Assembly: GCA_973895155.1 (NCBI GenBank)
Contig: OZ316892.1
Coordinates: 19,975,869 to 20,039,868 of the forward strand
Reading direction: 5' to 3'
DNA from: Marsupella aquatica
Lineage: Eukaryota > Plantae > Marchantiophyta
DNA: 64,000 nt
Shown: positions 1,569 to 58,858 of the stretch, piece by piece
Layout of the letters: the number at the start of each line of letters is the position of its first letter
Numbering within the stretch: the first letter of the stretch is position 1
Program-made: the position numbers and the translations under genes
The notes under the pieces: generated by a model
What the model was told of the DNA's origin: nothing
Databases searched by the model: none
The model's input: the letters and a program-made list of their open reading frames with translations, nothing else

Positions 1569-3714
1569 CTAGCCAGCAACTAGAACAGACAGGTATTTCT
1601 CAAGTTGTTGATAGTCAGAATCTCGCTTGAGCAAAGAAAATCGGACATGGCGATTGGTGACTCCGTAGTTGACTCCTGGGTATGTTCTTATTCCCGAATT
1701 GAGAAACAGGTTGTAACAGTCTTCCTCCTCATCTCTGTTGCAGTAAACCCAAGCGTACGCTGCATAATACATATTGTTATTCAGATTGCACATAGGCCTG
1801 CTGCGAGAACATAAATGTGCATACCATTGAACAAGAAACTATCCGAAACACAAAAGGCAAAAAGGCCACAGGTAAATAAGAAAGACCAGGCAGCAAACTG
1901 CAAAAGGAATGAATACAAACGCACCCTTCTCAAAAAGGGCACCAGCAACGGCGCTCAAAATCAAATCTGGTGATTGAAAAGGTTATGTTATCGAAGCATC
2001 GCCCCTCTGTCAAGCTGTTTGTTTTGCAGATTGGAATTGTTAGTTCATACCTGGCGAAGCAGGAAGTGTCTGGCCGAAGAAGGCGCAGTACTCCGATTCA
2101 AGTTTCAGTATAGAGAAACGAGAAGAACGGGCCAAGATCCCTTGAATCCATTCATAACGAGCTGACAACACCGCTCGACCATAATGGAAGACGCGCCCTT
2201 CTGCTGCATACCGCGCTGCTGAAAGACCCATGGGCACCGGGCCATTGTCTCTGCTGTACACTGCATTGACTCCCCTCAGGATCTGATAAGCTCTGGTTTG
2301 AGAATCATGAGAAATTGTCAGAGAATTGATAGTCAGCACGGTCCTCACTAGCATGGCCATTTCTGGATCTCTGAAGAACGCCCACCTGTAACCAACCACC
2401 AAAAGAATTATTGTCAGCGAGTTATATGAATGCAAGATTAAACTCAGGATTAAACCCCCAAGACGAGACTGAGTTGAGTACCCACCCTAGACGAGTGCCG
2501 GCATGGCCGCCGACTTTGGAGAAAGTGAAGACCATGATGTCCTCATCAAAAGCGTGGTCCATAGATGACATGGAAGGCCAATTGTAAGCAAAATCGAAAA
2601 CCGGGTGACTCCCATTGAGAACAGGTTTTCGAGGCAAGAAGGTGGGATTGTTTGGCGTCGTCACATATTCCAAGACATTCTTGCCAACGGTGGAGCCAAA
2701 GGTTGTCGCCTCTCCTCCCCATGCATAAAGGTTGTTGCCGAACATCTCAGCCTGCCTCTTGTACAGCTGCACCCCACCCCAATCAGACAATCAATCAATC
2801 CATTAATCCATTAATCCATCACTGCTTCACATATACAAAGATCAATGATTGCAATAGATTGCAATCACATTTTCCGTGCAGCCTTCGCTTCATACCTCAT
2901 AAAACGGAGTGAGGCCGACCAGGCTAGTTTTCCCGGAATAGGTAAGAGAATGCGCTTGAGCGATGGCCATGAGCATTTGTGAAGATCCGGCTGAGATCAC
3001 AAAGCTCTTGTCTTTCGTGACGGCATTTCCGACCAGCTCATGTAACGCTCGGATTTCTGATTCCAGCGCTGAGGTGGTTCCGCTGACGGTATTGGTCCCC
3101 TCCCAATAACTTATCCGGTACCATGGTGGAGTCACTAGAGTCCCAATGTCCGCATTCTGCTTCCAAAAGACCTCGTACATCACAGGATCTCCACTGCATC
3201 ACTCAACAAAAAGTACTCGATACATGAAATCTGTCAAATTGAGACGGTTCATTTATCAACTGCTAGGAGTGAGATTGATAGATTGACTTTCAAAGTACCT
3301 GTCCAAGGCCGCGACACAGTCAGGGAGATATTCTGCACAAGTCGGGCCTGTGAAGCAGTCATGGCATTCGCAGACGACCTCGTTAGCGCTAGTTGGCAGG
3401 GTGTCCATGAAGACGGTGCCATGACCCGAGCATTCATAAGTCGCGAGATGTTCTGCAATCTCAGCCGCGCCATGAGCCCAATCTTCTCTCTTTCTGTCCT
3501 GCTGCGGCCCCACTAGCTTCGATTGTTCGTGAGAGACGGAACTAAAATACCACCATGTGTAGAAGTTCGACAGCAGAACCAAGAACAGGAGCCATCTCGT
3601 TACCCGCTCGCGAGTCGAGAGTAGATGTGCGGCTCCTCCAATTCCGGCTGCTTCTCCCAAAAGGGGCCGATGGCTCTCTTCGTCCACCACCTTCTCGTCG
3701 CCAGTAGCACCCAT
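1569..3714 (-). CDS. Alliinase / tryptophan aminotransferase-related (TAR3/4-like) PLP enzyme with N-terminal TM anchor and EGF-alliinase domain, ~506 aa
   Basis: Five GT-AG exons in consistent phase: 3714-3299, 3193-2896, 2766-2486, 2385-2051, 1759-1569 (1521 nt). Motifs: CSGHG..CECHDCFTGPTC (EGF), DSGDP, TTPNNP, DFAYNWP, PLP lysine in TFSKVGGHAGTRLGW, PAYAW. Confidence 0.92.
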
Positions 3715-5613: not shown

Positions 5614-6794
5614 CTAGACCAATAGCTTTTCTTTTCCATAAAAGATGTTGAAGTTAAAAATTAAAAAATTGGGTTGCACAAACTATGTTGAGATGATGAA
5701 AAGAAATCAAGGTGAACAAAATATCTGGAAGAGAGAAAAGATGACAATGTGAGAAAAAAACTTTAAGATAAAGAAAAGAAGTCAAGGAGAGAGAAAATGT
5801 TAAAAATAAAATTAAAATGTCATGGTGAAAAAAAAATATCAAGGTGAAAAAAAATGGGAAAGAAAAAATGTAATAGGTAAAATTATAATGTTGGGGGTGA
5901 AAATAAAATATCTTGGTAAGATAAAGATGTCAATATGAGAAAAAGATGATGAAATGAGAAAAAATTGGCAAGACAGGAAATGTTGAAAAAAGATAAATAT
6001 GTGAAGATTATAAAAATATGTCAAAGTAAAAAAACATGTCAAGGCCAGACAAGAAATTATAAGCTTTACAATGTAATTATCAAGACATGTTATGTGTGAT
6101 CCCGACCATATATTTTTGTGATCGTGTTCTATAATTCATCCATTGCACAAAGGAATTTGAGATTGGAGATATGTTATGTGTGATCCCGACCATATATTTT
6201 TGTGATCGTGTTCTATAATTCATCCATTGCACAAAGGAATTTGAGATTGGAGATAACGGCCACGCATATAGAGTCCAAGCACAATCGAATGAGAAGGAAA
6301 ATACAGTTCTTAAAATTTAAAAATTTTAGTACTAAAAACTTTCCATGTTTTTCAAATTTCAGAATTTAAAATTTAAAATTAAATATGAATCACTTTAATT
6401 ATTTTTTAATTAAGTTCTTCATCTTGGGCAGGTGCGGGCTGGCTAAAGGGCATCTTGAACAGATGTTTATTTTAGTTAGGTGTACGGATAGATCTAAGGG
6501 TGATAAAAATAAAATTTTGATGAAAGATCAAAATTGGTTCTCACTTTTTTATTAAAGATACAGTATTTTAGTGGTAAAAAATGATACAGGGGGTAAAACT
6601 TTATATGCATGGATGGTACCAAAAGGACACTGGTGCATTGGGAGCCTCTTCTTCCTAAACTTTTCCCTTTCACACTAGAGGTCATTAATTTTCTTTATTC
6701 CTTCTCTTTGTCGGATTGTTTTTTGCTTGGGCCCTGCAAATTTAAAAGACGACCACTCTATAAAAGAGTCGGGGCCTTGTATTATAGTTCCTCA
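5614..6794 (-). mobile_element. Old, decayed non-autonomous Helitron copy (H0)
   Basis: Reverse complement of 6680-6794 matches the 5' end of the copies at 7462, 12812 and 57100 (ACTATAATAC...AGAGTGGTCGTC...AAATTTGCAGGGC...AGAGAAGGAATAAA). 5650-6045 is the eroded 3' repeat array, ending CATCTTTT...TATTGGTCTAG at 5614. Confidence 0.6.
6087..6254. repeat. Perfect tandem duplication, 2 x 84 bp
   Basis: ATGTTATGTGTGATCCCGACC...GAGATTGGAGAT at 6087 and 6171. Confidence 0.92.
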
Positions 6795-8047
6795 AACAAA
6801 CCAAAGGCACCAGACTAGGAGACAAGACAAGATCCCAAAGCTAAGTGACAACCAAGATCCCAATGCTAAAGACCCAATCAATTGGAGGCAAAAAAATAAA
6901 ATGAAAAGGCCCGAAATATATTTCACATTTCAATCCTCAAAAGTTTTATCTGTGGGGTTTTAGAGAATTTATCCAAAAAAACAACAACAAAGAAAATTTC
7001 CAAGGAATACTCAAAAACTTTTTAAAATTGTTCGTGGTCTCCTGTCACTGGAAATTGAGATTTTATTTTCTGACCAATAATACAAATAGAGGACGAGTCT
7101 CAAAACACCCTTGCATAGCTTAATGTACATAGTCTTTCGTGGGAAAATACATTTGAAAACTACAGTAGTGAAGGGATGAAATTACAACAAAAGACTTGAT
7201 AGGATCCTTGCAGGCAAAAACAAACCCACAAGGCCCCCTTCTTTTAAAAGCAATTTTGTTGGGCAGCTGTCCCTGCAACCGCTGTATCCCTCGTTGTGTC
7301 ATGTCCACTTCCCAGTCACCTGTCCTGCAACCCTCATAAAAATTAAAGAAATATACCAACCCAAACAGAATTGCGTCTCTCCTAAATGGTGTGTAGGGTA
7401 TACCCTCTACTTGAATTTTCTGTTCCCCCATGATTGTACCGCTCCTAACACATCATCATCATCAAGAACTATAATACACAGTTGTGCCATTTTTTAGAGT
7501 GGTCCTCATTCAAATTTGCAGGGCACAAAAATTAAAAAATCTAATCAAAGATAATCAATAAAGCCAAAGTGTGAATTGAGTTTAATGTGAGTCACAAAAA
7601 GTTGCACCAATGCCCAAAACAAGCAAGAATAATTACACCAGGCACACAAAAAAAGAAGTGAAAGACTTTAACACAATGCACAAGAATGTGACGGGTACCC
7701 CGTCACGGGAAGTCACACATAACTGGTTGCAAAGGCCGATACCTTGTTAATAGTCAATGTAAATAAGCCATTTTTTAATTTTTAGTTAATTCCGTCATTA
7801 TAGGTTGATGATGCCCCAGGTGACTTTATATTCTTTCTCTCATAATAGTTCTAAGATTTGCGGCGACCTAAGTGGGCAAATATTTTGGGACCTTGAAACT
7901 AGCCAGGACCAGCCCCATAGGACTTACCGTTTTGCTTCAAGAGCTATTGTTGAGACCCCCATTGCAAAGTCAGGAGAGGGGGGGGTTTTTTTTTAAATAA
8001 ATCCCTCCTCAGGAGGGCGAGTCCCATTAGTGGCCGTCCGAGAGAAA

Positions 8048-8375
8048 GAGGGGCTGCCTCGCGAGCCCATAGGGCTGCGTGCCCGGGCGATTAATGGGGC
8101 TCCGCGAGCTGAAGGGGCTGCCTCGCGAGCCCATAGGGCTGCGTGCCCGGGCAATTAATGAGGCTCCGCGAGCTGAAGGAGCGCAAGCGAGCGGGGGGGG
8201 GGGAGTTAAAGGGCCTCCCGCGAGCTGGGAGGATCACGCGAGCGGGGGGGAGTTAAAGGGCCTCCCGCGAGCTGGGAGGATCACGCGAGCGGGGGGGAGT
8301 TAAAGGGCCTCCCGCGAGCTGGGAGGATCACGCGAGCGGGGGGGAGTTGAAGGGCCTCCCGCGAGCCGGGAGGAA
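8048..8375. repeat. GC/CpG-rich tandem arrays inside element A (2 x ~64 bp, then 4 x ~47 bp)
   Basis: Unit GCGAGCGGGGGGGAGTTAAAGGGCCTCCCGCGAGCTGGGAGGATCAC; recurring CGCGAGC core; each unit has a CCTCCC/GGGAGG mini-hairpin and G-runs. Confidence 0.92.
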
Positions 8376-8796
8376 TGGCCGCGCGCCCTGCATAGGGCCG
8401 CGCGCAGGAGGACGCAAGGGTAAGGCCCGAGAAATGGGCCGGGGCGCATGGCGAAGGCGCCAGGAGTTTTTTCGGTTCTATTTTTTTTCCTTCCTTTTTC
8501 TTTCCCTCTTCCTTTTGCACGACCCTCTCATTGCCGAAAGCAAAAACGGGGTTCTTCTCTCTCTTGCCGGAAGCTCTCTCCAGATTCTAATTATTTTTGA
8601 AGCTCTCTCTTTCATGGTGGATTAGTGGGGCTTGCTGGCGTCATTCTTCCAGGCATTAGTGGCGGCCGCACGGAGTAGTGACGGGAAATTGAGAGAATTT
8701 AAGTGATCGGGCTACGGGGGCTGTTTCGGGCCAGGGAATTGACATTGCCACGGGTGACGGGATTGGTGATTGAGAAATTGATTTCGGGATGCATGG

Positions 8797-10653
8797 ATGC
8801 TAGATCAACCAGAGTTTAGTGCGTCACGCATTCGGAGATACAAGGCTGCTTACCGTGACTACGTGGAGACTCGGATTACACGGGAAAGGGAAGAGAGAGA
8901 AGTTATGATGAGCACGGGATTGGCAGCGGGTTCCTCACCGGTGGGTAGGAAGATTTTTCGTCGAATTTATCCCAAGACCTCCACCAAGGTGATGGAGGAT
9001 TGTCGGAACATTTTCCAAGCCACCGGGCTTACAGAATTCATGAAGGTGGAGATTACCATCCCTTCAGGGAAGAGCTGGGACATTGAGGCCGGGATGGAGT
9101 TCCGAACGGAGGGAATCTACTTTGAATGTCTCAAACGTGTAGTGCCCCATGTGGAGTTGGCTAAGCTATTGTTTCTTGAGAATCAGAAATTCTCATTCAC
9201 ACCTCGGAATATCAGGGGAGAACTCACGTTGAAAATGGTGGCCACTTGGGTGACCAATCCTACCTCCACCACCGCCATCCCTCTTTCTGCTGTCAAGGAT
9301 GTTGAGTATAAGGGCTTCCTGGCCAAGGTGCATCAACGGGTTCTTGGCAACGTGCAATCCGGAGTGCTGAATGAGGAGCATTTCGTGGTAGCTATGGACA
9401 TCAAGAACTACCCAGCCCATGTGTACGGATGGTGGTGCTACGGATTGAAGAAGCTATTGGCCGTTGAGCCCGGGAGTGTGAAACCAGGTGGGGCTGTACA
9501 TTTGATGGGGTCATTTGTATTGGCCAGGGCAGAAGGGTTGATTGGTTCTCCGGGGCATGAAGACACGGGATCATCTCTCACCACGGAGATCCGGAGTATT
9601 GCCACTACCGTTTTAGGGAAGCTCACGGAGGAATCATTGTCTGCTGGTGGGGAGGATAATAGAGAAGAAGAGAACCAGGAGGATGATTGCACATTGGAGT
9701 GGCTTGAATCACTCGTGGGAGATCCGAAACAGCCTCTGGAATACAACATTCCGGATGTTTACTTGGCAGAGCTACGGGATTTCAGAGAGGGAGTCCACGA
9801 GGGACTCAAGCTAGTCCACGCATTGAGGGAGTCTCTCAAGCACGCCACAGTCAAAGTAGAGACGTTAGAGCAGAGCATCCTGTCACTGAAGGAGGTGATC
9901 AAGACCAAGGAGCAGACCATTCATGAGAAGGTCAGGCACATCAATGCAGCTCACGTAGAGATCACCAACTTGAAGGGAGCTTTGTCCACCAAGGCCAAGG
10001 AAGCAGAAGAAGTAGGAGCGTTGAGGCAAGCATTGGCCAAAGAGAAGCAAAATTCTGGAGAAGTGATGGAGTGGAGGAACCAGGTGGGAGCACTACGGAG
10101 TCAGGTGGCAGCCTTTGAGACACGAGCGAAGAGAAGTGAGGCCCTGAGTCTAGGGAAACGGAAGAGTCCCGGCACACCTGGCTCCACACTTTCCCCGGAT
10201 GTGATCTCCCAAGCTATCGAGATGGTGGTGAAGGAGGTTAGTGGGAAGTATGGACCCTTGTTGGATGGAGCCAAGAAGAGTCAGGAGAAGAGTAAGAGCT
10301 TGGAGAAGAAGCTCCGGGAGGTACGGAAATCGTTACGGGAGGCTCAGGTCAGTACGGGGATGCCACCCAGGTCTGTCACCCCCGGGACTCCCATGGCCAC
10401 GGGGCAAGTTCTACCGTTGGAGTTGCGGTCCGGAGAAGAGGCTACCCTCTGGAAGGACACAATTGGTGAGGGGTACATCAAGGCGTGGCAGGCCTTGGCT
10501 GCTTTGAGGAAGCGCGGGAGCAGCAGCACTAAGAGTACTCCGTCGAAGAAGAAGAAAAGTACGGTGGCACTCACTCCCGTGAGTGATGAGGAGGAGGACC
10601 ACTCACGGGGCACAAGTCCGGGCACCGAGAGCGAAGAAGAAGAGGAGGATTAG
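8797..10653 (+). CDS. 618-aa intronless TE-associated protein of unknown function (N-terminal globular region, long coiled coil, basic NLS-like and acidic tail)
   Basis: Uninterrupted 1857-nt ORF inside element A; heptad-like region around aa 340-520; KKKK and EEEED tail. No recognised catalytic motif. Confidence 0.75.
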   Translation: MLDQPEFSASRIRRYKAAYRDYVETRITREREEREVMMSTGLAAGSSPVGRKIFRRIYPKTSTKVMEDCRNIFQATGLTEFMKVEITIPSGKSWDIEAGMEFRTEGIYFECLKRVVPHVELAKLLFLENQKFSFTPRNIRGELTLKMVATWVTNPTSTTAIPLSAVKDVEYKGFLAKVHQRVLGNVQSGVLNEEHFVVAMDIKNYPAHVYGWWCYGLKKLLAVEPGSVKPGGAVHLMGSFVLARAEGLIGSPGHEDTGSSLTTEIRSIATTVLGKLTEESLSAGGEDNREEENQEDDCTLEWLESLVGDPKQPLEYNIPDVYLAELRDFREGVHEGLKLVHALRESLKHATVKVETLEQSILSLKEVIKTKEQTIHEKVRHINAAHVEITNLKGALSTKAKEAEEVGALRQALAKEKQNSGEVMEWRNQVGALRSQVAAFETRAKRSEALSLGKRKSPGTPGSTLSPDVISQAIEMVVKEVSGKYGPLLDGAKKSQEKSKSLEKKLREVRKSLREAQVSTGMPPRSVTPGTPMATGQVLPLELRSGEEATLWKDTIGEGYIKAWQALAALRKRGSSSTKSTPSKKKKSTVALTPVSDEEEDHSRGTSPGTESEEEEED

Positions 10654-12229
10654 ATAGGCGTACGGACGTGGGTGTACGGCCTCCAGATTTCCAACATTTT
10701 AGTGGGGGGTCACTCATGGGCTTGTTGGGATGAGCTCGCGGAGCTGATTCCAACAAGAGGCGGCGCTCCTCAAACGGAGCCAGGATGAGCAAGTTATGGC
10801 CTGGAGAACTTATGTTTTTGCGGTACGGAAACGGCCATAACTCAGGCGTCTGAAGTCCGTTGAGGGAGCGACTTAGTGATTCGGAAGCAGGAAAAGAAGA
10901 GCTATCCAGGGGTGAGCTCAGGTGTGCACTTGGAAGGGCACCTAGTTTCGGCCATTTTGGGGTGCCTCTCACTTTCAGGGTTCACGTGTACTGTTGGGGC
11001 GCCGTCGAAGGCACCGTCGGCCCCCTTGTTTTGGGTTTAGGGTTTTAGCAGCATGTGTGTGCCGCATGCTCCTCTTCAGTTTAAGGATTTCTCTTAGTGC
11101 AAGGTTTTAGCGGCGCCGCTAGGGTAGCCGCCACCGTTGTGACCCTGTGAGGGGTGCTTTGGTGTGATTTTTCAGTATTTAGGGGGATAGCCCCGAAGTA
11201 GTTAGGGGGACTCAGTGTGAAGTTAGCAAGGAGGGATAGAGTGGAGCCTGAGGAGTTTGAAAGCGTGTTCAGAGTAGTGAGGGGGAGCCATACTCATTGT
11301 CCGGAGAGGCAGGAGTTGAGTAGACGGCAGGAGGCCGGGTTACTCATGCAATGTGTATCGTTTTTCCCAAGAGATATGGATCTGTACATTTGACTTGATG
11401 GGCTTTTGTTGTGTGTTCCTTCTCCCTTTTTCGCTTTCCGAATTGTGTTCTCCCGTTCTATGATTTGAAGAAACTTGCTTGGTTTGAGTCGGCCTTGTGA
11501 GTAGGGGTGGTGACAGCACTCTTTGGGTGACTCCGAGTGAAGGTGTAGTGGGGTAGTCGGCAGGACTTGATCAAAAGCTGTGGGGTGAGGGTAGTCGGTA
11601 GACTTGATCAAAACCTACATTTCCGGGAGCGGAAACCAAAATACTCATCCTGGTGTGAAAAGAATCCAAATAGCGTCCCTCCACGACCCCGTAATACGAT
11701 ACCAACGGTTTAAGCGAAGAAAAGTGCGGTTTGCACGTATTAACCGTTGGAGAGGCAAGTGACAAAGAATCAAGGAGTATACATCCATGTAAGTAAATAT
11801 TGTACATATTCACATGCAAATTTGTATTGTACATATTCATTGTACATATTTCAATATTGTGTGCATCATAATTTTGTATAATAATGGTAAGAGTCCATAA
11901 AAGTAATTTAATTGTTAACAACATTTTAGTTACTACATCAATAAAAAAAACTATTCTCCCAATATTTGTGGTGATTTTTACAGTCATTTGCAGTGTCAAT
12001 TTCAATGCCAAAAAAACAAAAATAATAAGGCCCAAAGACATAGTGAAGCGCATGGCATGGGTGTTGATGGCAAGGTCTCAGGCGAGGGGCACACTCGCAA
12101 TGTAGGGTAGCCCCTCGATCTCACATGGGTGGGGAAGGGGGGCGGTGAACAAGTGGAGTGATGGTGAATGTGAAAAAGAGAAGACCAAAAATAGGAAAAT
12201 GGGAAAAGGGGGAGGTTAAGGTTTGAAAG

Positions 12230-12790
12230 GAACAATCTTTTTCTTAACAACATCTTTTGTGCAATGCACGGGTATTTACCTAAATGATGTCTTGGCCGAC
12301 ACGATATCTTTTCCCTCAACGATGTCTTTGCCGACACGACATCTTTTTTCTCAACAACATCTTGGCCGACATGATTTTTTTTAATGACATCTTGGCCGAC
12401 ACGACATCTTTTTTCTCAATAACTTCTTGGCCAAGACAACATCTTTTTTCTCAACGACCTCTTGGCTGACATGATATCTTTTTTTTCCCAACGACTTCTT
12501 TTCTCTCAATGAATGACCTTTAGGGCGACTCGACATAATTTCTCTCCACGACCTCTTGGCCGACACGTCTTTTTTTCTCAACGACATCTTGGGCAACATG
12601 ACATCTTTTCTCTCAACAACATCTTGGGCGACATGACATCTTTTCTCTCAACAACCTCTTGGGTGACACAACATTTTTTTCTCTCCAAGACCTCTTGGCC
12701 AACACAACATCTTTTCTCTCCACGACCTCTTGGCTAACATGACATCATTTTTTCTCAACGACATCTTGGCCGACACGACTTCTTTTGTGC
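12230..12790 (+). repeat. Helitron subterminal ~34-bp tandem array (GACATCTTGGCCGACACGACATCTTTTTTCTCAAC)
   Basis: Same unit recurs at ~19880-20790 and ~57610-58010, always just before the hairpin-CTAG end. Confidence 0.9.
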
Positions 12791-13133
12791 AACACACAGG
12801 TATTGAGCTAGTTAACTTCTATAATAAACAGTTGTGCCTTTTTATAGGGTGGTCGTCATTTAAATTTGAAGGGCACAAAAATTAAAGAAGCTGACCAAGA
12901 GAAGGAATAAACTAAAAAATTATATTATATTTGGTGTGAAGTAAAGAGTGACATGTTTTCCAAACAATAAATAGAGGAGAATGCCAGGAATGACAATGCA
13001 CAATAATGAGTACTTTATGGACCATCTATGTATAATACTTTATGTACCATTTAAGTATAATTCTATACCCATGATAATTTATGTCATAAGATTGATTACA
13101 AATATTACATACTGTAATAAAAAATATCAAAAC

Positions 13134-13245
13134 TGTCATGGAATGAATGCAATGAATGTCTGTATAGTCAAGAATGTGTGTACATATAGTGGGGTCGGAT
13201 GACCGGCTGGTCCGGTCGTCCGGTCAGAGGAGGTAGAGTCTAACA
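13134..13245 (-). repeat. 3' LTR of the copia element
   Basis: Identical by eye to 19629-19740. Confidence 0.95.
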
Positions 13246-13570
13246 CTCCCCTTTGGATATATAGTGACAACTATATAGACAACATAGACTATACCTATTA
13301 TATCATGTTCATAGGAAATACATGATATAAGTACAAGCAAGGTAGACTACCTCGTTAAAAACCTTTATCAATTCTAGCTTAGTAAAAACTCTACCAGTGT
13401 AGTAGAGAAAAAATATGAGTGCTAAAGGAAAAAGAGTGCAGCCTAACAGTCCTCGTCTTAATAAATGTCAATGTTAAGTAAAGTTAGATGCTATAGTAAA
13501 TCTAGCTTGAACATCTGTCTCAACAGTAGGTCGTCAGCATCATGTCATCAGCATCATGTCGTCAGCATCA

Positions 13571-16500
13571 TCAAGCATCATGTGGAGCAGCAGCCTCCAT
13601 GGTCATCATGCGTCGCACGCTCCGCAGTCCAATCGTCTGGCAGTGTCGGTGGTGAACTGATGGCGATAGTGATTTGGTGAAGAGATTCGCACAGTTGTCT
13701 GCACTTGAAATTTGTAAAATGTTGATCTCTGTTCCATGTAACTCGTGGGTGTAGAAGAACTTTGGAGTTATATGCTTCACGCGATCGCCTTTGATGAATC
13801 CTTTCGTGATCTGCTGTACACATGCTGGGTTATCCTCAAAAATGTTAGTAGGCTTCGTTAGTGGTGGTAGGCCGCATTTGGTGTTGATGTGATTTATAAA
13901 GGATCGTAACCAAACGGCTTCACAACCAGCCTCATGTAGAGCTAAAATCTCTGAGTGATTCGATGAGGTTGCTGTTAGGGTCTGTTTCACGCTTTTCCAA
14001 GAAAAAGCGGTACCCCTAATAGTAAAGACATATCCGGTTTGGGATTTTGCGGTGTCAGTGTCGGAAAGATATCCGGCATTCGCATATCCTATGAGTTCGT
14101 GGTTTGCACCGAATGGGTAAAATAACCCGGTATCGGGGGTGCCACGCAGGTACCTAAATACGTGCTTAACTTCGTTCCAGTGTCTGGCTGTGGGAGTTGC
14201 ACTGTGTCTAGCTAGTAAGTTAACTGCAAATGCAATGTCTGGTCGGGTCTGATTTGCTAAATACATTAATGCTCCTATCGCGAAAAGGTATGGGGTTTCT
14301 GGTCCTAATAGTGGTTCATGTTCTTCGCGCTTGCGAAAAACATCAGTATTGTTTTCTAATGAACGTACAACCATTGGTGACGTCAATGGGTGTGCTAGGT
14401 TCATATTGAATTGTTTTAGGATCTTTTTGGTTTGTGTTGTCTGATGGAGCATCATGCCAGTGGGTAGGATCTCTAGTTGTAAGCCTAAGCAAAAGTTTGT
14501 ATGTCCAAGGTCTTTCATCTCAAATGTTGATTTAAGACGAGTAATAGTATCTTCTATAATTTAGGGTGTCCCAAATATATTTAAGTCATCAACATATATA
14601 GAAACGATGACATATTCGTCATCCACATGTTTAATAAATAAGCATGGGGTAATGGCATCATGGGAAAAACCCATGGCAATCATTTCATCAATAAATCTTT
14701 GATACCATACTCTGCCACTTTGTTTCAGGCCATATAATGCCTTCAACACGCGGATAGCTAGTCCACGGCGAGTATTCCGTACGGTTGATACAGTGGTGTC
14801 ATTGTTATGAGTTACATGTGTAGATGACACATGAGGTATAACTTGAGATAATTGTTTTATAATCTTATGTAAATATGGAATATGCGATTTAGCGCCATGA
14901 GCCAAAGCTCGGCGATGTTGCTCCAACTCTGGAGGTGATCGCATGTATAGACAAGTGTCTAAAGTTCCATATAGATATGCGGTCACAACATCCAGTTGTC
15001 GCATCTGTAGTTGATGGAAAATGGCAAATCCGATAAGGTATCGGAATGTTGTGCTATCCATAACCGGTGAGTAAGTTTCATCATAGTGAATTCCCGATTG
15101 TTGGGTAAATCCTTTCCCTACTATGCGTGCTTTGTAGCGTACAACTTGGCCTTCATCATTTCTTTTGCGGACGAATGTCCACTTGTAGCCAATGGGGTGT
15201 ACGTCTTGCGGTGTTGGCTCAACTGGGCCAAAAGTGTGTCTGCTTAGTAGGGAATCTAATTCTCCATTTATAATTTTTTGTCATTCAGGCCAATCTGGTC
15301 TGTTTTGGCATTCTAAAATGGATATTGGTTTGGGTGTATCATCAGTGATATGTTTTGCCACCATTAATGCAAAAACATCATCTATTGAAGTAGTATTTCT
15401 ATCCCACATCGCACCGGTGTGTGCGTAGTGGATAGAGATCTCCTCATGAGTTGTAGATTCGGTATGATCGACATCAAGTGAAGGTGGTATAGATGAACCA
15501 TGCCTTCTTGGTTGTTTATCCTTTGATCCTAAGGGTTGCCACGTTTGGTACGAGGCTGGGATGTACTTGTTGGCTCACTTGATAATTCGATGCGAGCAGA
15601 TGCTCTCGCAGCTGGAATATGTGAATGGCTAACTTGTGATGTATCGACAAAAGCGTCGGGAAGTTCTTTTACAATCTTGTGGAGTTGTAAAATTCGTTGA
15701 ACTTTTTTCTCCCCTTGATTGGTTCTAAGGTCTTGCCAAAATGGCAAGTGTCTTTCCCACTCCAAAGGTGGTTGTGGGTGTTTAGGGGTTATTAATGGTG
15801 GGTAAATGTGTTCATCAAAATGGCAATCTAGAAATCTGGCTTTAAAAACGTCGCCAGTTGTAGGCTCCATATATCAGATTATGGATGGTGAGTCGAATCC
15901 GATGTATATTCCCAACTGTCGTTGGGGTCCCATCTTGGTTCGTTTGGGTGGAGTAATGGGGACCATTACTTGACATCCAAATGAACGAAGATATGATAGG
16001 TCAGGTTTGATACCATTAGCAATTTGGTATGGGCTATAGGTATTAAAAGCCGATGGGCGGTATTGAATGAATGCATTAGCCTGTAATATGGCATGTCCCC
16101 ATGCTGAGACGGGGAGTTTCGATTGCATTAGTAGTGGGCGTGCAATGAGCTGAAGGCGTTTAATGACAGCTTCAGCTAATCCATTCTGGAAATGCACGTG
16201 GGGTACAGGATATTGTACGTCGATGCCAAGTGATGTACAAAAGTCGTCAAATGTTTCAAATGTGAATTTCCCTGCGTTGTCCACCCTTAGTGTCTTAATG
16301 GGATGATCTGGGAATTGTGTTTTCACGCGCAAGATTTGCGCCAAGATGCGAGGTATAACCATGTTCCTCATTGAAAGCAGGGTCACATTTGACCATTTAG
16401 TTGATGCGTCGATTAATACCATAAAGTAGCGGAAAGGTCCGCTCGGTGGGTTAATTGGCCTGCAAACGTCCGCATGTATGATTTCCAAGAATTTTGGTAT

Positions 16501-18223
16501 CTTGGTTGGCAATTTTGATGTCGTGGGCCTTGTTATTAATTTGCTGCGTGAGCATGCAGTGTTAATTGGAATGTGGCGTATATTGGTTGGAATGCCTCTT
16601 GAATTCTTAATGATTTTGCTTAGCATGGATTGGCCAGGGTGGCCGAGGCGTGCATGCCAAAGCGCGGGCAATTCGCTTGGTTGTGCATTGTTATGCAAAC
16701 ATTCAATTTGAGTTACATAAAACCTACATGGGTACGAGAAAAAGGTTTCTTTAATGATTTTCCCCGTAGGGGTATTTTCAACCAAGTGGATTACTTCTTG
16801 GTTTCTTGTATCGCCTGTCTGGACGTTGAGTCCATTTGCTTGTATATCTCTAAAACTGAGGAGATTATGGGTTGCGTTCGGGGCAAAAATAGCAGATTCT
16901 ATGTGGATTTATGTACCCTGTGGGACTCTAATGGAAGCTGGGCCAAAGCCCTCTTCTATTTGGCTAGGGCCACTGATAGTGGTCAGTGATCTACGTGAAG
17001 GTGTGATCTTGTGGAAAAGGTGTCTATCCCGGAGGATAGTATGTGTGGTCGCGCTGTCAATAATGCATGTGCTTGGGCTATTTAGATCTGGGGTTGTGGA
17101 GCTACTCGCCACTAAATGTGCCTCGGGTTGAACAGGTGGATCTGTAAAGTCTTGGAATGGGTCGCTAGACTCCATAAACGCCCCGTGGGTCTCACGGGGT
17201 GGTGCCCTAGAGGTTTGTCCATCCTTGAGTGACTGTTGGTATAGGGCTCTAAGGTGTTGCAGGATTCTTTCTTGCTAGGTGGTTTGTCATGCCGCATTCA
17301 TGGCATTTTGGGCATTCCCGTTGTTGTCGGGGCTGTGACCAATCATTTCTACGGTTGTTGTTATATGTTCTTCCACCGCCGCGTCCTCCGCGTCCACCGC
17401 GTCCGTCACGTCCTCCACGTCCTTCTCATCCTCCACGTCCTCCACGTCCTCTAAAGGTCCGTCGGTAATTATATTGTGGACGTTGGTTAAAGAAACTCCC
17501 CCTGTTGTGGGTGTTGCTCCGGTTGCCATTCTTAGTGCGCTTAATGCCCTGCCTTGATGTGGAGGGTTCAACGTTTTCTATATTATGGGTTTCGCCCTGT
17601 GGTCCTGAGGCTAGTGTACTCGCAGGGCGTTTTCTAGAATTAACTAAAAGAAGCTCTTGGTTTCTTTCTGTGACTAGGAGGTGGGCGATGAGCTCTGAGT
17701 ATTGCCCGAACTTCATGTTCTGGTACTGGGTTGATAATAACACGTTCGAAGAGTGAAACGTGGACAAGGTCTTTTCTAGTAGATCCTTGTCGGTGACTGG
17801 CTCGCCACAGAGTGCAAGGGTTGAAGTGATCCTGAAGAGCTCGCTATTGTAGGTTGAAATAGATGTAAAATCCTGGACTCGTAGGTTTAGCTAGTCTTGC
17901 CTGGCTCTAGGTAGTTCGACCAATTTTTGGTGGTCGAATCGGGTCTGAAGCGCTGTCCATAGTTCGCGAGGGGTTGAGAGATGCATGTATTGTCTTTGCA
18001 AGAACCTATGGATATGGCGTCTAAGAAATACTAGGGCCTTGGATTCATTCACTTTGGTTAACGGGTCTGGTTGGGGTTCGCCAGCTAGTATGGGTTGAGC
18101 TATCCCTATAGCTGGGAGTAAGGTTAGCGAGGTGAGGTTCTCCTTGAGATTCATGGACCATTCTAGGTAATTGCTACCATTGATTTCTAGGGCTGGAAAG
18201 GTTAATTTCTCGAGGTTGGTCAT
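13571..18223 (-). pseudogene. Disrupted copia gag-pol polyprotein
   Basis: Gag MTNLEKLTFPALEINGSNYLEW, knuckle CHECGMTNH, protease CIIDSATTH, integrase WHARLGHPG/RVDNAG/QNGLAE, RT LYGLKQSGRVWY/IYVDDL, RNase H SSNHSEILALHEA/IFEDN. In-frame stops at ~17891, 17426, 16909, 15874, 15283 and 14561 plus frameshifts. Confidence 0.95.
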
Positions 18224-19616
18224 GTTCGGTTGCTATGTCACTAGCTTTCTAAGTTCTTTTTTAATGGTAATTGAGGCGTATGTACTAGTACGTATAGTAA
18301 AAGTCGACAAAGCACATTTATGCGGCATGCAGGGTGTGTTTTAGTGAAGGGGGCATGCAAATCTGGAATTCAATTTTAGGGTTTGCACTTAGGATTTAGG
18401 TTTTCCTTGTTATTTGGTTAACTGCAAAGTTCCTTTTGTATTTGCTCTTTCCTTTGTTAAATTGTGCAGTAATGGAGTTTTGCAGTTTGTACAATTATGG
18501 GTGATTATTTACTTTTGCCCTGGTTAAGTGCACATGTGACTTTGTAAAGTTAAGTTTTCTTTGTTACGGTGTGCAGTTATGAAGGTTTTGCGGTTATGTG
18601 CGCTTATTTGGTTAAGTGCAACATTACCTTTGTAAGCGAGATTTCTTTGACGGATTGTGCGCTTAGGGATTTTGCACTTAAATGTGTGTTTATGGTTAAG
18701 TGCAACTTTTCCTTTGTATCTGAAATCTCTTTGACGGATGTTGCAATTAAAGAGGGTTTTGCACTTAGCAGCGGTTTCTCGACGTTTTTCGATTGATGTT
18801 GCAAAATTTCAATTTCAACGACCTCCTTCCAAGCTCCTCTGCGGTCTTTGCTGTAGCTCCGGCCTTCCGTGACTGTTACTGCTTCGATTCTTTTGTTTTT
18901 GTCCTCCTCTTCTAATCGTTTTGCTTTTTTCTCAGGTTCCAATCCTGTGTGTTATGTCCTTATGGGGATTGAGGTGGTGGCTGCCTCTCTCTCACCCTTT
19001 CGAATCTCAGTGCCTCCGCTTCAACTTCGAGCTCTCTTCCTCTATTTGCTGCCGTTGTTCGATCAGGTTTCCAGGGGTTTGCGCTTGTCCTTTAGATTCC
19101 AATCGGCCTCTACAACGATTTGTGCTCTCTTTCTGTTTGTGGCTTCGATCAGTTTCTGCTTCTAAAGTTTTCTCTTTTATGTTGTTAATCTGCCTCCTTG
19201 CTGCCCCGGTCGTTAACTGCTTATGATCGATATGCTGCAGTTTCGATTCGATGAATGGGTCCCATTGCCTCCTTTTCTTCTCACAATAATTTTCTTGAGG
19301 AATCGGTCCTCACAGTGCCTCTCATCCATTCTTTCTCTTCAGAAGGTGATTTCGATTGGACTCTTTTCAATTCTCAGTTGTTGATGCTGTTCTGATCAAT
19401 TTTCTTCTCAGCATGCTTCTCCTTATTGTGTTCTTGATCCGCATTGATCTTTTCGCTTCTCGGTGTCCTTATGAATCAGTGCGTTTCTGCTTCTTCCGCC
19501 TTATTAATTTTTATATGCTTCTGGCTGGGTCTCTTTAATTTCTTCTTACTCGATCGTTACTCAATTCGCCATAGGTTTTCTTCTCGATTCTCCTTTGCTC
19601 CGCTCGGTGAGCTTTA

Positions 19617-19628
19617 GTGCTGATAACG
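19617..19628 (-). promoter_or_regulatory. Primer-binding site (half-tRNA-Met type) of the copia element
   Basis: CGTTATCAGCAC immediately follows the 5' LTR on the minus strand; the type reported for Bianca elements. Confidence 0.8.
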
Positions 19629-19740
19629 TGTCATGGAATGAATGCAATGAATGTCTGTATAGTCAAGAATGTGTGTACATATAGTGGGGTCGGATGACCG
19701 GCTGGTCCGGTCGTCCGGTCAGAGGAGGTAGAGTCTAACA
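19629..19740 (-). repeat. 5' LTR of the copia element
   Basis: Identical by eye to 13134-13245. Confidence 0.95.
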
Positions 19741-20859
19741 AAAACCAAAAAATAGTACAAAAGCGGTAAAAGAGGGGGGGGGGGGAGGATGGGGTGCCGA
19801 ATAAAAAAAATGAAAAATACAAAAACAAAAATAATTTTTAGCTGATAATACTTTGTGGTTGTTGTCACTCATTTTTTACCCCATGACATCTTTTACTAGA
19901 TAACAATTTTTGGGTAATTATATCTTTTATTACTTAGATATATTTTGAGCAATGATATTTTTTACTTAATGACATCTTTTGAGCAAGAAATTTATTGGCA
20001 TTTTTTGCACATCTTTTCCTTAACAACATGTCATGCAATGACATGTTTTACTTCACAACATCTATGACTGATGACATTTTTTTACTTGACGACAGCTTTG
20101 GAGTCACAACATTTTTTTACTTGACTACATCTTTTACTTGATGACATATGTTTTACTTCACAACAACTTTGGCAACACGAGTTCTTTTTACTTGATGATA
20201 TCTTTGACATAACAACATCTTTGGCTCCCGACATCTTTTTACTTGGCAATAATATCTTTCACATAATGACAACTTTTTACTTGACAATATGTTTTTACTC
20301 CATGACATCTTTGGAGACACCACTCCTTTTTTTCTGAACAACATCTTTTTACTCCACGGGTTTTTTTTAACACCATCTTTTTACTTTGCGTCATCTTTGG
20401 CAACACAAAATCTTTTTACTTCACGACATCTTTGGCAACTCGATTTTTTTTAACGGCATCTTTTGTGCAACGCACGGGTTTTCTTCACAACATCTTGGGC
20501 AACACGACATTTTTCTTAAGAACACCTTTGGCGACACAATATTTTTTTCTCAATGATGTCTTGGGCAACACGATATCTTTTTTTCAACGACATATTGGCC
20601 GACACAATATCTTTTTCCTCAAGGACATCTTGGCCGACACGACATCCTTTTCTCAACAACTTCCTGGCAGACACGACATCTTTTTTCTCAGCGACATCTT
20701 GGCCGACACAACATATTTTTTCTCAATGACCTCTTGGTCGACACAACATCTTTTTTCTCAACCAAATCTTGGCCAACACGACATCTTTTGTGCAACGCAC
20801 GGGTATTGAACTAGTGTATTCATATCAATTGCACCCACTGTACTTGGACTTGTCCTTTT

Positions 20860-23197: not shown

Positions 23198-23299
23198 TTT
23201 TTCTAGATGTGACAAGAGAAGACCCTATGAAGGACGTGAATGTGGGTCATTTGCATTTTAAGTCCTTCATAGGATCTTCTCTTGTCACATCTAGAAAAA
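23198..23299. repeat. Inverted repeat: 38-bp stem with one mismatch, 26-nt loop
   Basis: TTTTTCTAGATGTGACAAGAGAAGACCCTATGAAGGAC (23198-23235) vs GTCCTTCATAGGATCTTCTCTTGTCACATCTAGAAAAA (23262-23299). Confidence 0.92.
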
Positions 23300-26911: not shown

Positions 26912-28444
26912 ATGTCATCGGTTTATGTGTTGGAGCCTCCCACGAAAGGGAAGGTGATACTCAACACAACTGCTGGCTCGTTGGACTTCGAGTTGTGGCC
27001 CAAGGAGGCCCCCAAGGCGGTTCGCAATTTTGTGCAGTTGTGCCTGGATGGTTATTACGATGGCACGATATTTCATCGCATCATCAAGACGTTCATGGTG
27101 CAAGGGGGGGATCCAACAGGTACCGGAACTGGTGGGGATACTATCTATGGAGAGCCGTTTGCTGATGAATTTCATTCCAGATTGAGGTTTAATCATAGAG
27201 GACTCGTAGCTTGTGCAAATGCAGGCTCTCCCAACACGAACAACAGCCAGTTTTTCATTTCATTGGATCGGTGTGATTGGCTTGATAAGAAGCATACCAT
27301 ATTCGGGAAGGTCACTGGGGATACAATCTACAACTTGATCAAACTTGGAGAGGTTGAGACGGGCTCAGATGACCGGCCGGTGGACCCACCACCCAAGATC
27401 ATCTCTGTTGAGGTTCTCTGGAATCCCTTCGACGATGTCGTCCCTCGGCAGGTTGCGAAACCATCTATCGAGGCAGTGGTTGGTGATGCTGCCCCAAAGA
27501 ACAGAAAGAAAGCCAAAAAGGAGCTCAATCTTCTCTCGTTTGGTGAGGAAGCTGAAGAGGAGGAACAGCAATTGGCCAGTGTCAAAGAGAAGAAGATAAA
27601 AAGCAGCCATGATGTCCTGCAAGATCCTAGGCTGCTAAAATCGGCCAGTGATGCCTCACGAATGGACCCCATGGAAGCTCAACGGCGACAGGAGTTACAG
27701 AATTCGACTCGACAAGCCCTCAAGGAATCTGTGAAGGGGACTGATGGACAGCGATTTTCTAGGGCTCGTTCTCCAGGTAGTGATGAGGATGATGAGGCCA
27801 ACTTTGACAAGAGGATGCGAGACCAAATTTTGGAAAAGAAAAGGCTTATGCACATGGGAGGGGAAAAACCAGTAAGAAAGGACTCCAAGCGAGGGAAGAC
27901 ATCCACTTCTACAACAAGCAAATCTGCTCCAGCACCACGGTCAATGAGTAGTGATGATGATAGTGATGACGATGTAGCTGTGAAGAAAGAAAAGCTGTCA
28001 TTGAAGAAAAGGGGACTAGGTTCTCAGGCCCGAGCTGAGCTTGTAGAAACAGCTGACAAGGAGATGGAGCTGCTAAGCCCACTGGAACAGCAGAGAATGA
28101 AGTATAAGCAGAGGAAAAAGAGTCTCCTGGGTCGTGAAGAGAGTACACTAGCAAGGTTGGACAGGTTTACCAAGGTGATGACCAAGACAAAATCAAAAGA
28201 GACGAGTTCAAGAGTCACAGACACGGTAAAGGATGGAGAAGATAAAGCGCATGCAGATTGGCTGGCACACTCCCTGAAGTTTGAAGTTGATCCTACGAAA
28301 AAGGGTGACATGGATAGGAATGAGGATCCGAATCAGTATGTGGTGCACGACCCCTTACTTGAGAAGGGAAAGGAGAAGTTCAACAAAACGCAGGCCAAGA
28401 TGAAGCGACGAGACAGGCAGTGGGCTGGAAAATCTGTGACATAG
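26912..28444 (+). CDS. CYP57: Spliceosome-associated cyclophilin CYP57 / CWC27 homolog, 510 aa, intronless
   Basis: MSSVYVLEPPTKGKV start, FHRIIKTFMVQGGDPTGTGTGG, DEFHSRLRFNHRGLVA, SQFFI, WLDKKHTIFG, NLLSFGEEAEEEE, KSSHDVL.DPRL, YVVHDPLLEKGKEKFN. Confidence 0.95.
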   Translation: MSSVYVLEPPTKGKVILNTTAGSLDFELWPKEAPKAVRNFVQLCLDGYYDGTIFHRIIKTFMVQGGDPTGTGTGGDTIYGEPFADEFHSRLRFNHRGLVACANAGSPNTNNSQFFISLDRCDWLDKKHTIFGKVTGDTIYNLIKLGEVETGSDDRPVDPPPKIISVEVLWNPFDDVVPRQVAKPSIEAVVGDAAPKNRKKAKKELNLLSFGEEAEEEEQQLASVKEKKIKSSHDVLQDPRLLKSASDASRMDPMEAQRRQELQNSTRQALKESVKGTDGQRFSRARSPGSDEDDEANFDKRMRDQILEKKRLMHMGGEKPVRKDSKRGKTSTSTTSKSAPAPRSMSSDDDSDDDVAVKKEKLSLKKRGLGSQARAELVETADKEMELLSPLEQQRMKYKQRKKSLLGREESTLARLDRFTKVMTKTKSKETSSRVTDTVKDGEDKAHADWLAHSLKFEVDPTKKGDMDRNEDPNQYVVHDPLLEKGKEKFNKTQAKMKRRDRQWAGKSVT

Positions 28445-40661: not shown

Positions 40662-43650
40662 TTTTTATTTTTTATTTTTTAATTATTATTATTATTATTA
40701 TTACTTTCATGAAGGGCAGAGCCCGGGAAACTTTATTCAACAAAAAAGGCAATACAAGATCTCCCGCCTGAGAGGAGGAGGCAGGAACGAGCAGAAAGAA
40801 AAGGTGGCTGAAAGAGGGAGCACACCCACGGCAAGGGGGAAGGGAGTCCTCCCAAGCTGCCCAAGAGAAGGGGGCAGACCAGAGGTGGAGAGGACTCCCA
40901 AGATTGGGAAGAAACATAAACCATGAAACCCAACCATACAGCCCCAGGAGACACCAAAGCAACAATCAACCCAAGACACCAGCCAAGGCACGGCAAGGAT
41001 TGAGCTGAGCACCACTCTCCACTGGCCGCCAAAGCAGGTCCAAGAGTCCACCAGCAATAAGAGCAGTCGATAGTAACCAATGACCACGGCGCGGCCCCAA
41101 TTGCATCAGGGTAGGGAACGGCATAGAGGCATAGTCCAGTGACAGGAAGCGAGTCAGAGGAAAAAGGGAATTGATCCCCCAACATCACCGAGAAGGAATC
41201 CCGCTACAAAGGGAAAGTCCAGCATGGGTAGGGCAAGAAATGTGATCGTCGAACCTCGAACTTCCTCCTCTGCCCAGATTATGAACTGCAAAATGGCCCA
41301 GACAACCGGCTGCAAGATGTGCAAGATGTGTCCCCGAGAGGGATCAAAGGAGAGGAATAATAGCTCGGTGGTGCCAGGAAGAGCGAAGAGACTGCTACGT
41401 TAGGTGAAGAAGAACCCCGCATCCAAGACCCAAAGACGAGATCTAGCCACCAGTGTCAAAGAAATGATTCCTCGTCAAAAGGAGAACCAAGTGGAGAGTG
41501 GAGAGAGCCAAACCCCTGAGGAGAACCAAGGTTAGTATCCGAGCAAGAGTGTAACTGAGGGGGGACCTGGGAAGTGTATAAGAACACATAGTATGTTCAT
41601 TCAGATGAAGACCTTCCTACTGCCAAACGAGGAATTTATGATCAGAAAAGGTGCCATATCGGAGCACTATATTGTTGTAATACTATGAGAATGGTCATAA
41701 TTTCCCAAAGGACAGACCGAAAGAACCCCACTACCTGTGAGAGTCCCGGGAGGGCAGAACATATCAACAAAGCTGACCCCGAAGGATCAAAAGGGTGGGT
41801 AAGAAGGAGGATCGGCGCTCCAATGCCAGTGAGTCATGTCGGGGACGGGATCCCCATCTGTTCCGAGATGGTGAGGGAGAGAGGACAATATCCAGGCCGG
41901 AAAAGAAGAAACAGCATCTCCACAGCAAGGGCAACCGATAGAGAAGGAATCCAGAGTTCCAAGTGAGCCAGAATAGGAGCATCAAGAGTCAATGATCAAT
42001 CTGAAATCCGAGCGAGTCCGTGTGAAAATAATGTTGAGCAGATAAAGGTAGCACACCGCTCGTGATAAGAGAAGCAGTTGGATCGAGAAAGAGAGCGATG
42101 GGACAGAGATGAGATGAGTGTAGCTTCATGAGACACAAAGCGGAGGTCATGGAAGAGGAGGGATATGGTTGATAGCCAATCCACAATGGGAAGCGGAGTA
42201 CATCCGCGGGGAACACAGAAAGGACAAGCTATCGCTCAAGAAAGGGCCACAAACATATAATTGACTCTCACCAATACTATATATTGGGAACCGAGCGGAC
42301 AAGAAAGGCTAGGCGATACTCCCAGTAAAACAGGGCCCATAGAAGGCCAAAGAGAACGAAGAGGGTGCTGGACAAGGGTGATGGAAGGGATGATAAATAC
42401 GATAACTGGACAACGGCTGAATACCCAACCGAAAACAACAACATCGCGAGTGATAGGCAAGGAACAAAGGACGAAAGTCAGGGAATACGCCGGTTGGCTA
42501 AAGGGCTGGAGATGTATTTCTGCGCATAATGCAGCCTGAGCCTCTTTGTTTCTGAGTCGGAACATATTGTCACTGAGCGAAGGTGTAGAACAACGGAGGA
42601 CGCTGCAGCAAATGGTGAGAAGATAACAGACCGGGATTGAAACTGAAAAATATTACAATTTTTCCAGAGCTGCCACACAGTTTCATATATAACGAAGAGA
42701 CGAGCGGAAGATCTAGGGGAACGGCTTAGGGACAAGTCCAAAAGACTGATGAAAGAGGTGCCACGAGGGATGAGAGAAATCGCAGGCATTCTCTCATAGA
42801 ACCAAGCCGTCCGATTCCAGGCCATAATTGCCTGTGGACAAGAGAAGAAGAGGTGCCGGCTGTCTTCCGTGCATTGTCGACAGAACGGGCAACACCCGTC
42901 GCCATGCCCACATTGAAGAGCCCGCTTACTTGTGATTAGCCCTGCAACCAATACTCTCCAAAGAAAAATCTTGCCCCGATTAGAAAGGTCAGAACACCAG
43001 ATTCTTCTCCATCGTCGTTTGATGAGTTTTGATGAGTTTTTGCCACTAACAATAAAGAAATCCAACACGCAAGCCACAGTGCACGAGGCAGCTCTATGTA
43101 TGCATACCATCTCAGTCTAAATCTCTGTTTGGGAGGTCTGGGAAGTAGTTAGCCTTGCAGGACAACCCAAGAATAAAGCATCTTGTTTTAGGATATGTAA
43201 TGACAGTGATAAAATCCACAAATGTTGTTTAATTTGTAATGGTCTTCTTAATCTAGCTGTGCCCACGTAAGTCAGAAGGAGCATGTCAATTTTAGATTCA
43301 AGGGGCCAACTACGGCAATTATGCAAGTTAGGAATTAAGTGAGAGCTTCAGCAAAGTGTCATATGTGTCTACATGGACGCCAACCAGGGAGAGGTTGCAA
43401 GCCAGGTTTATCTATGTTTCCCTCCAGACCTAGAGAGCTCACACCTCAACGTCGAGGATCAGGAACACGATTCCTTTTATTTATTGTTTCAAAATCATTT
43501 TTTACTGACTAGTAAAATCCAGTAGCAGAATGAGCCAGGCCTAGAAAAGACCTCGTCACCAGCATAATTCTGAAGGTTCTTTCTTCTTGGCCAAGTCAGC
43601 CAATATCATTTTGTGTGGGGAGAGGATGTTAGGATCATTCTTTATCTAAT
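40662..43650 (-). mobile_element. 5'-truncated L1-clade LINE (ORF2 C-terminus with zf-RVT, ~1.8-kb 3' region, TAA/poly(A) tail)
   Basis: WRRIWCSDLSNRGKIFLWRV...CPFCRQCTEDSRHLFFSCP in ORF 42478-43110; minus-strand tail (TAA)n-AAAAAATAAAAAATAAAAA at 40662-40702. 5' boundary is approximate. Confidence 0.85.
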
Positions 43651-58037: not shown

Positions 58038-58858
58038 TGGAATGATAAAGACAACTACAACGGCCCGCATGAGTCCAAAGAGAGATGAACTTGTGGAGTG
58101 ACGCCCTCTATCACTCCCCTAGTACTATGCAAAGTGAGAAGGAGGGAGGAATATAAGATGTGCATTCATTGATTTATAGACATCTAATGTGGTTTATCAC
58201 GATTGGTATGCTGCCCCATTTTCGTGTCCATTTAGCAGGATTGTTTGTGAGCACCCTTATGTAATTCGGAGCCTGCTTGTAATCATACATCAAAATGTGG
58301 CTCCATTCATTGATTGAAAGTCACATTACAAGTATCGCGGTATGCAGGGGTTCCGTACATAGTATCTGTAATATTACATGGTCTACAGTGAACGATGTAT
58401 ACCTAATTGTTAAGCATTTATCGTCCCTTCTGGTAATCATACATCAAAATATGGTTGCAGTCATTGATTGCAAGAGAAAAACAAGGATTATCACGGTATG
58501 AAGTGGTACCGTACATAGTATATGTCATATTTTGATGCGTTTATCGTGGACTGGGCTGGCATGCTCCGTACTCTATTACGTGATATTATTGGGACGGTAT
58601 TACTTAGCGTGAATATTACGTTTACCTTGGTGGTACTTATCGCAAGTCGATAGCAGTGGAAGTGTGCACAATAGTTTTGATGCGGCGAGTAGCAGTTCTG
58701 TTTGCGGGCGCAGATACAGCTTCGACTTTGAGGCAACAGCTCCGACTTTGATTTGCGTGTGTTGTGAGCGATATGATAGTGCGGCCGCAGGCAGACTTGG
58801 AAGCAACGGGTTGAAGGTAGACGCATGCCCCTATCCGCGTTACCAACCTCTCCACGCC

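Follow-up and report, generated by a model that had tools for sequence, protein, structure and literature searches.

A probable solo long terminal repeat of an Athila/Tat-type Ty3/gypsy element, carrying an intact 618-codon gene in the liverwort Marsupella aquatica

Introduction

Formation of solo long terminal repeats (LTRs) is a major route by which retrotransposons are deleted in plants, and the solo LTRs left behind are treated as non-coding leftovers. Described here is a unit of 4,078 bp at positions 7687-11764 (plus strand) of a 64,000-nucleotide stretch of Marsupella aquatica DNA (assembly GCA_973895155.1, contig OZ316892.1, positions 19,975,869 to 20,039,868 of the forward strand; hereafter the window), which contains an intact open reading frame (ORF) of 618 codons and is read here as a solo LTR, likely of an Athila/Tat-type Ty3/gypsy element.

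The closest described elements are the Athila retrotransposons of the non-chromovirus OTA group of Ty3/gypsy, whose 3' sense accessory ORF carries the ATHILA (PF03078) or Transposase_32 (PF20167) domain (PMC6317226; PMC11728184). The unit shares with them a tRNA-Asp/Asn-type primer-binding site (PBS), a 5-bp target-site duplication (TSD) and TG…CA ends, together with a sense-strand accessory ORF with basic clusters and a coiled coil, for which a protein language model gave weak leads to both Pfam families. It differs in that the ORF lies inside the LTR, whereas that of Athila lies between pol and the 3' LTR; the LTR measures 4.1 kb against an ATHILAfinder default of 1-2 kb; the spacer between LTR and PBS is 20 nt and not 3-6 bp; and the protein has no hidden Markov model match to PF03078 or PF20167 at the curated cut-off. 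The Athila tRNA-Asp/Asn primer site is reported to begin TGGCGCCGTT (bioRxiv 10.64898/2026.03.20.713144; PMC2844528) and the Athila TSD to be 5 bp in 95% of cases, while tRNA-Asp is the primer in 72% of Athila and 37% of TatII elements, and TSDs of 5 bp can occur in both (PMC6317226); Tat elements that lack aRH have also been described from liverworts (PMC13468544). Because tRNA-Asp is used by both groups and such Tat elements exist, the present element was named Athila/Tat-type and not filed as Athila; its membership of this Ty3/gypsy group is likely.

Ogre (PMD, PF10536), Retand (Transposase_28) and maize Grande (gene23) also carry a conserved accessory ORF in a large Ty3/gypsy element, and such ORFs are described as often nuclear and sometimes as having an SMC-like coiled coil, that of Grande having its own promoter (PMC7264820; PMC5418596); theirs, however, are internal and mostly antisense, whereas the ORF described here is sense and LTR-borne. 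The anti-silencing VANC proteins of VANDAL/MuDR are likewise accessory proteins encoded by a transposable element (TE), in which an extended coiled coil accompanies a globular domain, and are recognised by binding of a short family-specific DNA motif and removal of methylation; they are reported to be structurally homologous to the PMD protein MAIN, and models of both VANC and Athila-domain proteins show pentamers held together as coiled coils (PMC13547354). Gypsy elements encode the PMD-A clades, and MAIN/MAIL1 have a part in silencing (PMC5418596). VANC comes from eudicot DNA transposons, however, and since low-confidence models of the 618-amino acid (aa) protein gave no VANC match, the link to VANC is a lead only.

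Retrosat2/RIRE3 (Tekay) resemble the unit in having LTRs of more than 3 kb, an extra ORF and many solo LTRs, but their ORF0 lies upstream of gag-pol and is treated apart from the LTR (PMC3485330); the Tekay PBS is mostly of the tRNA-Met type, and Tekay membership was ruled out by PBS type. Coe1 is described as having a transposase gene between putative LTRs and not inside one. In reviews, the extra ORFs of plant elements are assigned to the internal region (PMC7264820), and literature searches, outside the scope of which lay Additional file 1 of PMC6317226 and Steinbauerova et al. 2011, returned no description of a gene inside the LTR of a plant retrotransposon. The precedent found for an LTR-internal gene is sag of mouse mammary tumour virus (MMTV), of which solo LTRs also exist; MMTV, however, is an animal betaretrovirus and Sag a type II membrane superantigen (PMC11998498), whereas the present protein lacks a transmembrane segment and showed no similarity to Sag.

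Results

The unit begins with TGTGACGG at position 7687, ends with GTGACA at 11764 and is flanked by the duplicated pentamer AAGAA (7682-7686 and 11765-11769, plus strand), so that its TG…CA ends and exact 5-bp TSD fall within the usual definition of a solo LTR (TG…CA with a TSD of 4-6 bp). The termini form an imperfect inverted repeat (TGTGAC against TGTCAC, 5 of 6 letters), and a palindrome with an 8-bp stem (-9.0 kcal/mol as DNA) lies at the U3 end (7688-7706, plus strand). No long direct repeat between the two ends and no internal LTR pair were found, nor did anything else in the window resemble the unit. An earlier sequence-only reading had reported the same TSD, the TGTGAC/GTGACA ends and the lack of an internal LTR pair, all of which were borne out on re-inspection. 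Within 50 nt of each boundary, 6 TG and 9 CA dinucleotides give 54 pairs, among which about 0.05 with an exact 5-bp TSD were expected by chance and 1 was observed; as this expectation was derived from base counts and at chosen boundaries, the sequence alone is suggestive and not proof.

Contigs from public sequencing runs were compared with positions 7300-12150; at least half of the unit's words occurred in 6 of the 14 listed runs, and no RNA run was among those 14. Deep contigs started exactly at 7687 (runs X1 and X4) and stopped exactly at 11764 (X1 and X2), as is expected of many copies diverging into different flanks. Listed family contigs covered 7687-11764 at a depth of 1,524-1,664 in X1 (12.4 in the unique flank), and family contigs reached 5,631-6,330 in X2 (46 in the flank), an excess of about 120-fold in both runs, while in X4 most pieces lay at about 195-285 against 3-5. 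To an order of magnitude, the family comprises tens to a hundred or more near-identical copies. Depth was flat across the unit, which argues that no short terminal part of it is doubled. One X4 contig spanned 8319-10761, and with it the whole ORF, at a depth of 270 and with one other letter and one gap, both outside the ORF; its near-identity indicates that the ORF is open in the majority of the family and that the present copy is very young.

Beyond the 3' end, record 23 of X4 (197 nt, depth 164) matched 11696-11764 with no differences and continued for a further 128 nt. Among the 30 letters shown past 11764, a 20-nt spacer ending in a T run was followed at letters 21-30 by TGGCGCCGCT, which matches 9 of the 10 letters at the start of the Athila tRNA-Asp/Asn PBS, TGGCGCCGTTGCC; in X1, a mixed consensus of two contigs carried GGCGCC in the corresponding place. 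For the stretch that runs on past 11764 the implied depth was about 80-155 (k=31 assumed), roughly half that of the unit, as would be expected if most LTRs of the family sit in two-LTR elements. Minus-strand orientation of the LTR was ruled out, the PBS following 11764 on the plus strand. In the window itself no exact PBS motif was found; there were four matches at two mismatches, none of them at the end of the unit. The flanks of the present copy are an interrupted dispersed repeat, with no internal domain (PBS, polypurine tract (PPT) or gag-pol) adjoining it, and since the TSD directly follows 11764 and no primer site lies nearby, this locus holds a solo LTR.

The absence of a repeat pair, the flat depth and the branching of the family at both ends together indicate that the LTR spans the full 4 kb instead of being confined to a short part of the tail. 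That the unit is an LTR with a gene inside it is therefore very probable, and the proposal of the sequence-only reading that a giant LTR has within it the coding sequence of a coiled-coil protein and persists as a solo LTR gains support from the PBS met by the 3' end of other copies and from the flat family depth.

Several observations weigh against this interpretation. Contig depth is not a copy number. Empty sites were suggested by 6 of the 15 joints listed (at least 21 existed, 6 further ones being outside the listing), each passing over the unit in a copy of the flanking repeat with a skip of 4,098-4,187 nt, but the joint sides are shorter than 30 letters and the net sizes lie within about 15 nt of 4,083 without equalling it. 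Evidence for the PBS comes from 30 letters of a single clean contig from one run, together with the mixed consensus, and its 20-nt spacer far exceeds the 3-6 bp of Brassicaceae Athila (bioRxiv 10.64898/2026.03.20.713144) and the 0-5 bp of the REXdb rule (PMC6317226), a spacer of about 9 being described for FIDEL (PMC2844528). Neither a PPT before 7687 nor gag-pol was found among the public-run contigs; the loose 5' end before 7687 in X2 was a two-contig mix (agreement 0.73) that is purine-rich at its end.

The missing gag-pol and PPT would suit a non-autonomous unit standing alone, or a rearranged fragment of a normal Athila element (a 3' internal ORF with a short LTR), in either case with a retroviral-type integrase acting in trans to amplify it, as would the extra depth that the tail draws from related families at 90% likeness, this being what a shared short LTR would give. 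A high-depth PBS after the 3' end is not expected of a stand-alone unit, however, and in a rearranged piece the short LTR should occur at both ends and double in depth, neither of which was seen; the 5' end, moreover, is a family-wide branch point with TG and TSD. This explanation is accordingly very unlikely. Both the stand-alone unit and the objection that the locus might be a deletion derivative of an element with short LTRs and an internal ORF, which the sequence-only reading had entertained, were weakened by the PBS and by the flat depth over the whole unit. A chance TG…CA and 5-mer around a host gene, for which the 0.05 pairs expected near the chosen boundaries leave some room, can practically be dismissed in view of the contig breaks at both exact boundaries (which also answer the earlier concern over a chance 5-mer), the depth excess in X1 and X2, the empty-site joints and the PBS.

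Internally, the unit (all features on the plus strand) consists of a CpG-rich tandem array (8026-8470), a pyrimidine-rich leader (8471-8796) with three very short upstream ATG frames (3, 4 and 8 codons), the ORF (8797-10653) and a non-coding tail of 1,111 nt (10654-11764), partly common to related families, which contains a T-rich stretch at 11354-11453 (46% T). This order of array, leader, 1,857-nt ORF and tail of about 1.1 kb agrees with that given previously. Every other stop-to-stop frame in the unit is of at most 136 codons. The tandem units of the array (2 x 64 nt and 3.8 x 47 nt) lie at 8049-8374; the array is 70% GC with a CpG observed/expected ratio of 0.95, and is likely the promoter or enhancer of the ORF. 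With 13 occurrences, on both strands, in an array of 450 nt, the word CGCGAG is a candidate target of the protein; it was found once more in the unit and 8 times over the remaining 60 kb of the window, although tandem duplication alone would account for the count. The tail is likely the ancestral LTR core (promoter, R and U5, with presumed borders), of which its additional depth from related families is a weak hint.

Three further observations concern the tail. Summed contig depth was several-fold higher at 11663-11745, near the 3' end of the LTR, a segment common to related families that can be folded into a stem; an internal GGGGTGGTGACA motif at 11504-11516 resembles an LTR end 250 nt before the real one; and a 16-nt word is duplicated at 11564 and 11601.

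A position of the gene in U3 is probable. Were it instead in R/U5, the CpG array would be the main promoter of the element and the genomic RNA would have the ORF as its first cistron, comparable to a 5' extra ORF absorbed into the LTR. The array and the leader after it are indeed the most promoter-like part of the unit, no TATA box marking a second promoter was found in the tail, and 5' extra ORFs are reported in 33% of elements for Tekay and in 21-23% for Ogre and TatII (PMC6317226). Such an arrangement would, however, require strong-stop DNA to reach about 3.3 kb and gag to be translated downstream of a 618-codon ORF, and the domain leads point to the 3' ORFs of Athila; it is considered unlikely.

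The predicted protein has a mostly helical N-domain (approximately aa 48-250), an acidic linker, a conserved motif (aa 300-340), a coiled coil (approximately aa 310-520) that makes up about a third of its length, and an acidic tail, with basic clusters at aa 51-56, 454-456 and 571-587. No transmembrane segment was found, the highest 19-residue hydropathy being 1.09, a value by which an Env-like role was ruled out. Searches of Pfam gave sub-threshold coiled-coil matches alone (approximately aa 310-490), and no reverse transcriptase or integrase was found in the ORF. The sequence-only reading had called the product a nuclear coiled-coil protein; the coiled coil held, given these matches and the layout, while 'nuclear' is a suggestion of the basic clusters.

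Thirteen homologs were identified at E<=0.001 by phmmer among 1.84 billion representatives; two were added by profile searches and one by a cluster look-up, giving 16 in all. By BLASTP they covered 617 of the 618 residues at 21-59% identity, with P0002 sharing the start and P0005 the end, which indicates that the protein is old and conserved; its long-term conservation at the protein level is evident from these alignments. Ten of the 13 first matches were looked up, and the five named homologs all came from the leafy liverwort Calypogeia fissa. The N-domain was the best conserved part among distant homologs. A word-based homolog search with the single protein as query retained none of 7,994 candidates, and metagenome scans, with viral contigs outside the scan, gave 36 pattern matches with the protein, none confirmed, and no match with a 20-nt motif of the tail.

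Structural comparison was made with two AlphaFold2 models from alignments of 9 and 10 rows, both of them poor (predicted local distance difference test scores of 44.8 and 44.5). Against the Protein Data Bank (PDB), Foldseek gave no match at E<=0.001 for either low-scoring model, while VIA-align over 48,161 chains gave best Z values, for the same models, of 5.0 (root-mean-square deviation (rmsd) 3.4, 59 aligned) and 6.3 (rmsd 4.8, 68 aligned); the best matches were generic helices, and VANC21 was not among the matches listed. A PDB sequence search with the N-domain profile gave no match at E<=10.

The ESM Atlas returned as top leads for aa 48-250 an ATHILA (PF03078) cluster at 0.85 (17% of members) and Transposase_32 (PF20167) at 0.84, and for the whole protein PMD (PF10536) and Transposase_28 at 0.78, scores that must be read as leads since values below 0.9 are reached by a third of shuffled proteins. 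These families are typical of the extra ORFs of Athila, Ogre and Retand and, as weak leads from a language model, would agree with the primer site. That caution on the Atlas scores tells against the proposed reading of the protein, as do three other points: Pfam gave no ATHILA, Transposase_32, PMD or Transposase_28 match (whole protein at E<=1, N-domain at E<=10); the family is so young that the intact frame in this copy is by itself no proof of selection; and just one CGCGAG word lies within the unit outside the array.

An anti-silencing function for the protein is tentative, a possibility somewhat short of an even chance. It might instead be a scaffold built on its coiled coil, with a part in moving particles, in nuclear import or in directing integration, to which its extent of coiled coil, with basic and acidic tails, would be suited; the function of plant extra ORFs is open, with nuclear import roles among those proposed (PMC7264820), and modelled Athila proteins had many predicted host contacts (PMC13547354). 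The best-conserved N-domain, however, leads to the ATHILA/Transposase_32/PMD group, of which PMD is tied to chromatin silencing, and the scaffold role is regarded as rather unlikely.

Elsewhere in the window, a dispersed repeat family with 35-nt tandem arrays occurs at 12232-12793, 19807-20824 and 57523-58038, and both the solo LTR and a Ty1/copia element (13134-19740, minus strand) are inserted in or beside its copies. The copia element has identical 112-nt LTRs, an AAAAC TSD, pol in at least three frames and, beside the 5' LTR, a primer site of the GTTATCAGCAC type, which we take to be the half-tRNA-Ile site of Bianca. Tandem paralogous ORFs at 50763-56774, 79-83% alike at the DNA level and with proline-rich tails, have the appearance of TE accessory genes; they had no Pfam match and no significant match to the 618-aa protein, a profile comparison with the ORF at 52360-53100 giving a probability of 0.7% and a non-significant E of 0.08 (three control ORFs, 0.47-0.65). 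Two host genes were recognised, an intronless 510-aa cyclophilin with a long charged tail (26912-28444) and the first exon of an alliinase-EGF-domain gene (3256-3714), as were a LINE-type zf-RVT fragment (42478-43110, minus strand) and a 43-nt inverted repeat hairpin (23198-23299).

Discussion

Taken as a whole, the locus is interpreted with moderate confidence as a solo LTR of a young, many-copy Athila/Tat-type element with an intact 618-codon gene, the product of which is likely a nuclear coiled-coil accessory protein and is predicted to counter host silencing. A full element would have been inserted here, after which its two LTRs recombined to leave one. Most probably the gene began as an Athila-type 3' sense accessory ORF, absorbed into U3 when plus-strand priming shifted upstream of it; a gene inside U3 would be copied by reverse transcription to both ends of the element. 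The CpG array and pyrimidine-rich leader would then serve as its own promoter and 5' untranslated region, with the 1.1-kb tail as the older LTR core, and the protein might oligomerise through its coiled coil and act on the chromatin or DNA of its own family. The 20-nt spacer would point to an integrase cutting well inside the cDNA end, or to unusual priming.

Such genes would be overlooked or counted twice by annotation that masks LTRs, or that provides for extra ORFs only on the 5' or the 3' side of the polyprotein. The present copy is young, near-identical to others of its family and intact, and as an Athila-type accessory ORF from a class of open function it is suited to direct testing.

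It is conceivable, if doubtful, that the LTR of a liverwort Ty3/gypsy lineage has taken in a VANC-like anti-silencing gene together with that gene's own promoter, so that solo LTRs stay working genes. If so, every insertion would double the gene, every solo LTR would help to keep the family's CpG-rich promoter array unsilenced in trans, and the integrase would appear to cut 20 nt in from the end of the cDNA, where a few nucleotides are usual. An LTR with a complete conserved gene makes the product of retrotransposon deletion a possible source of element protein.

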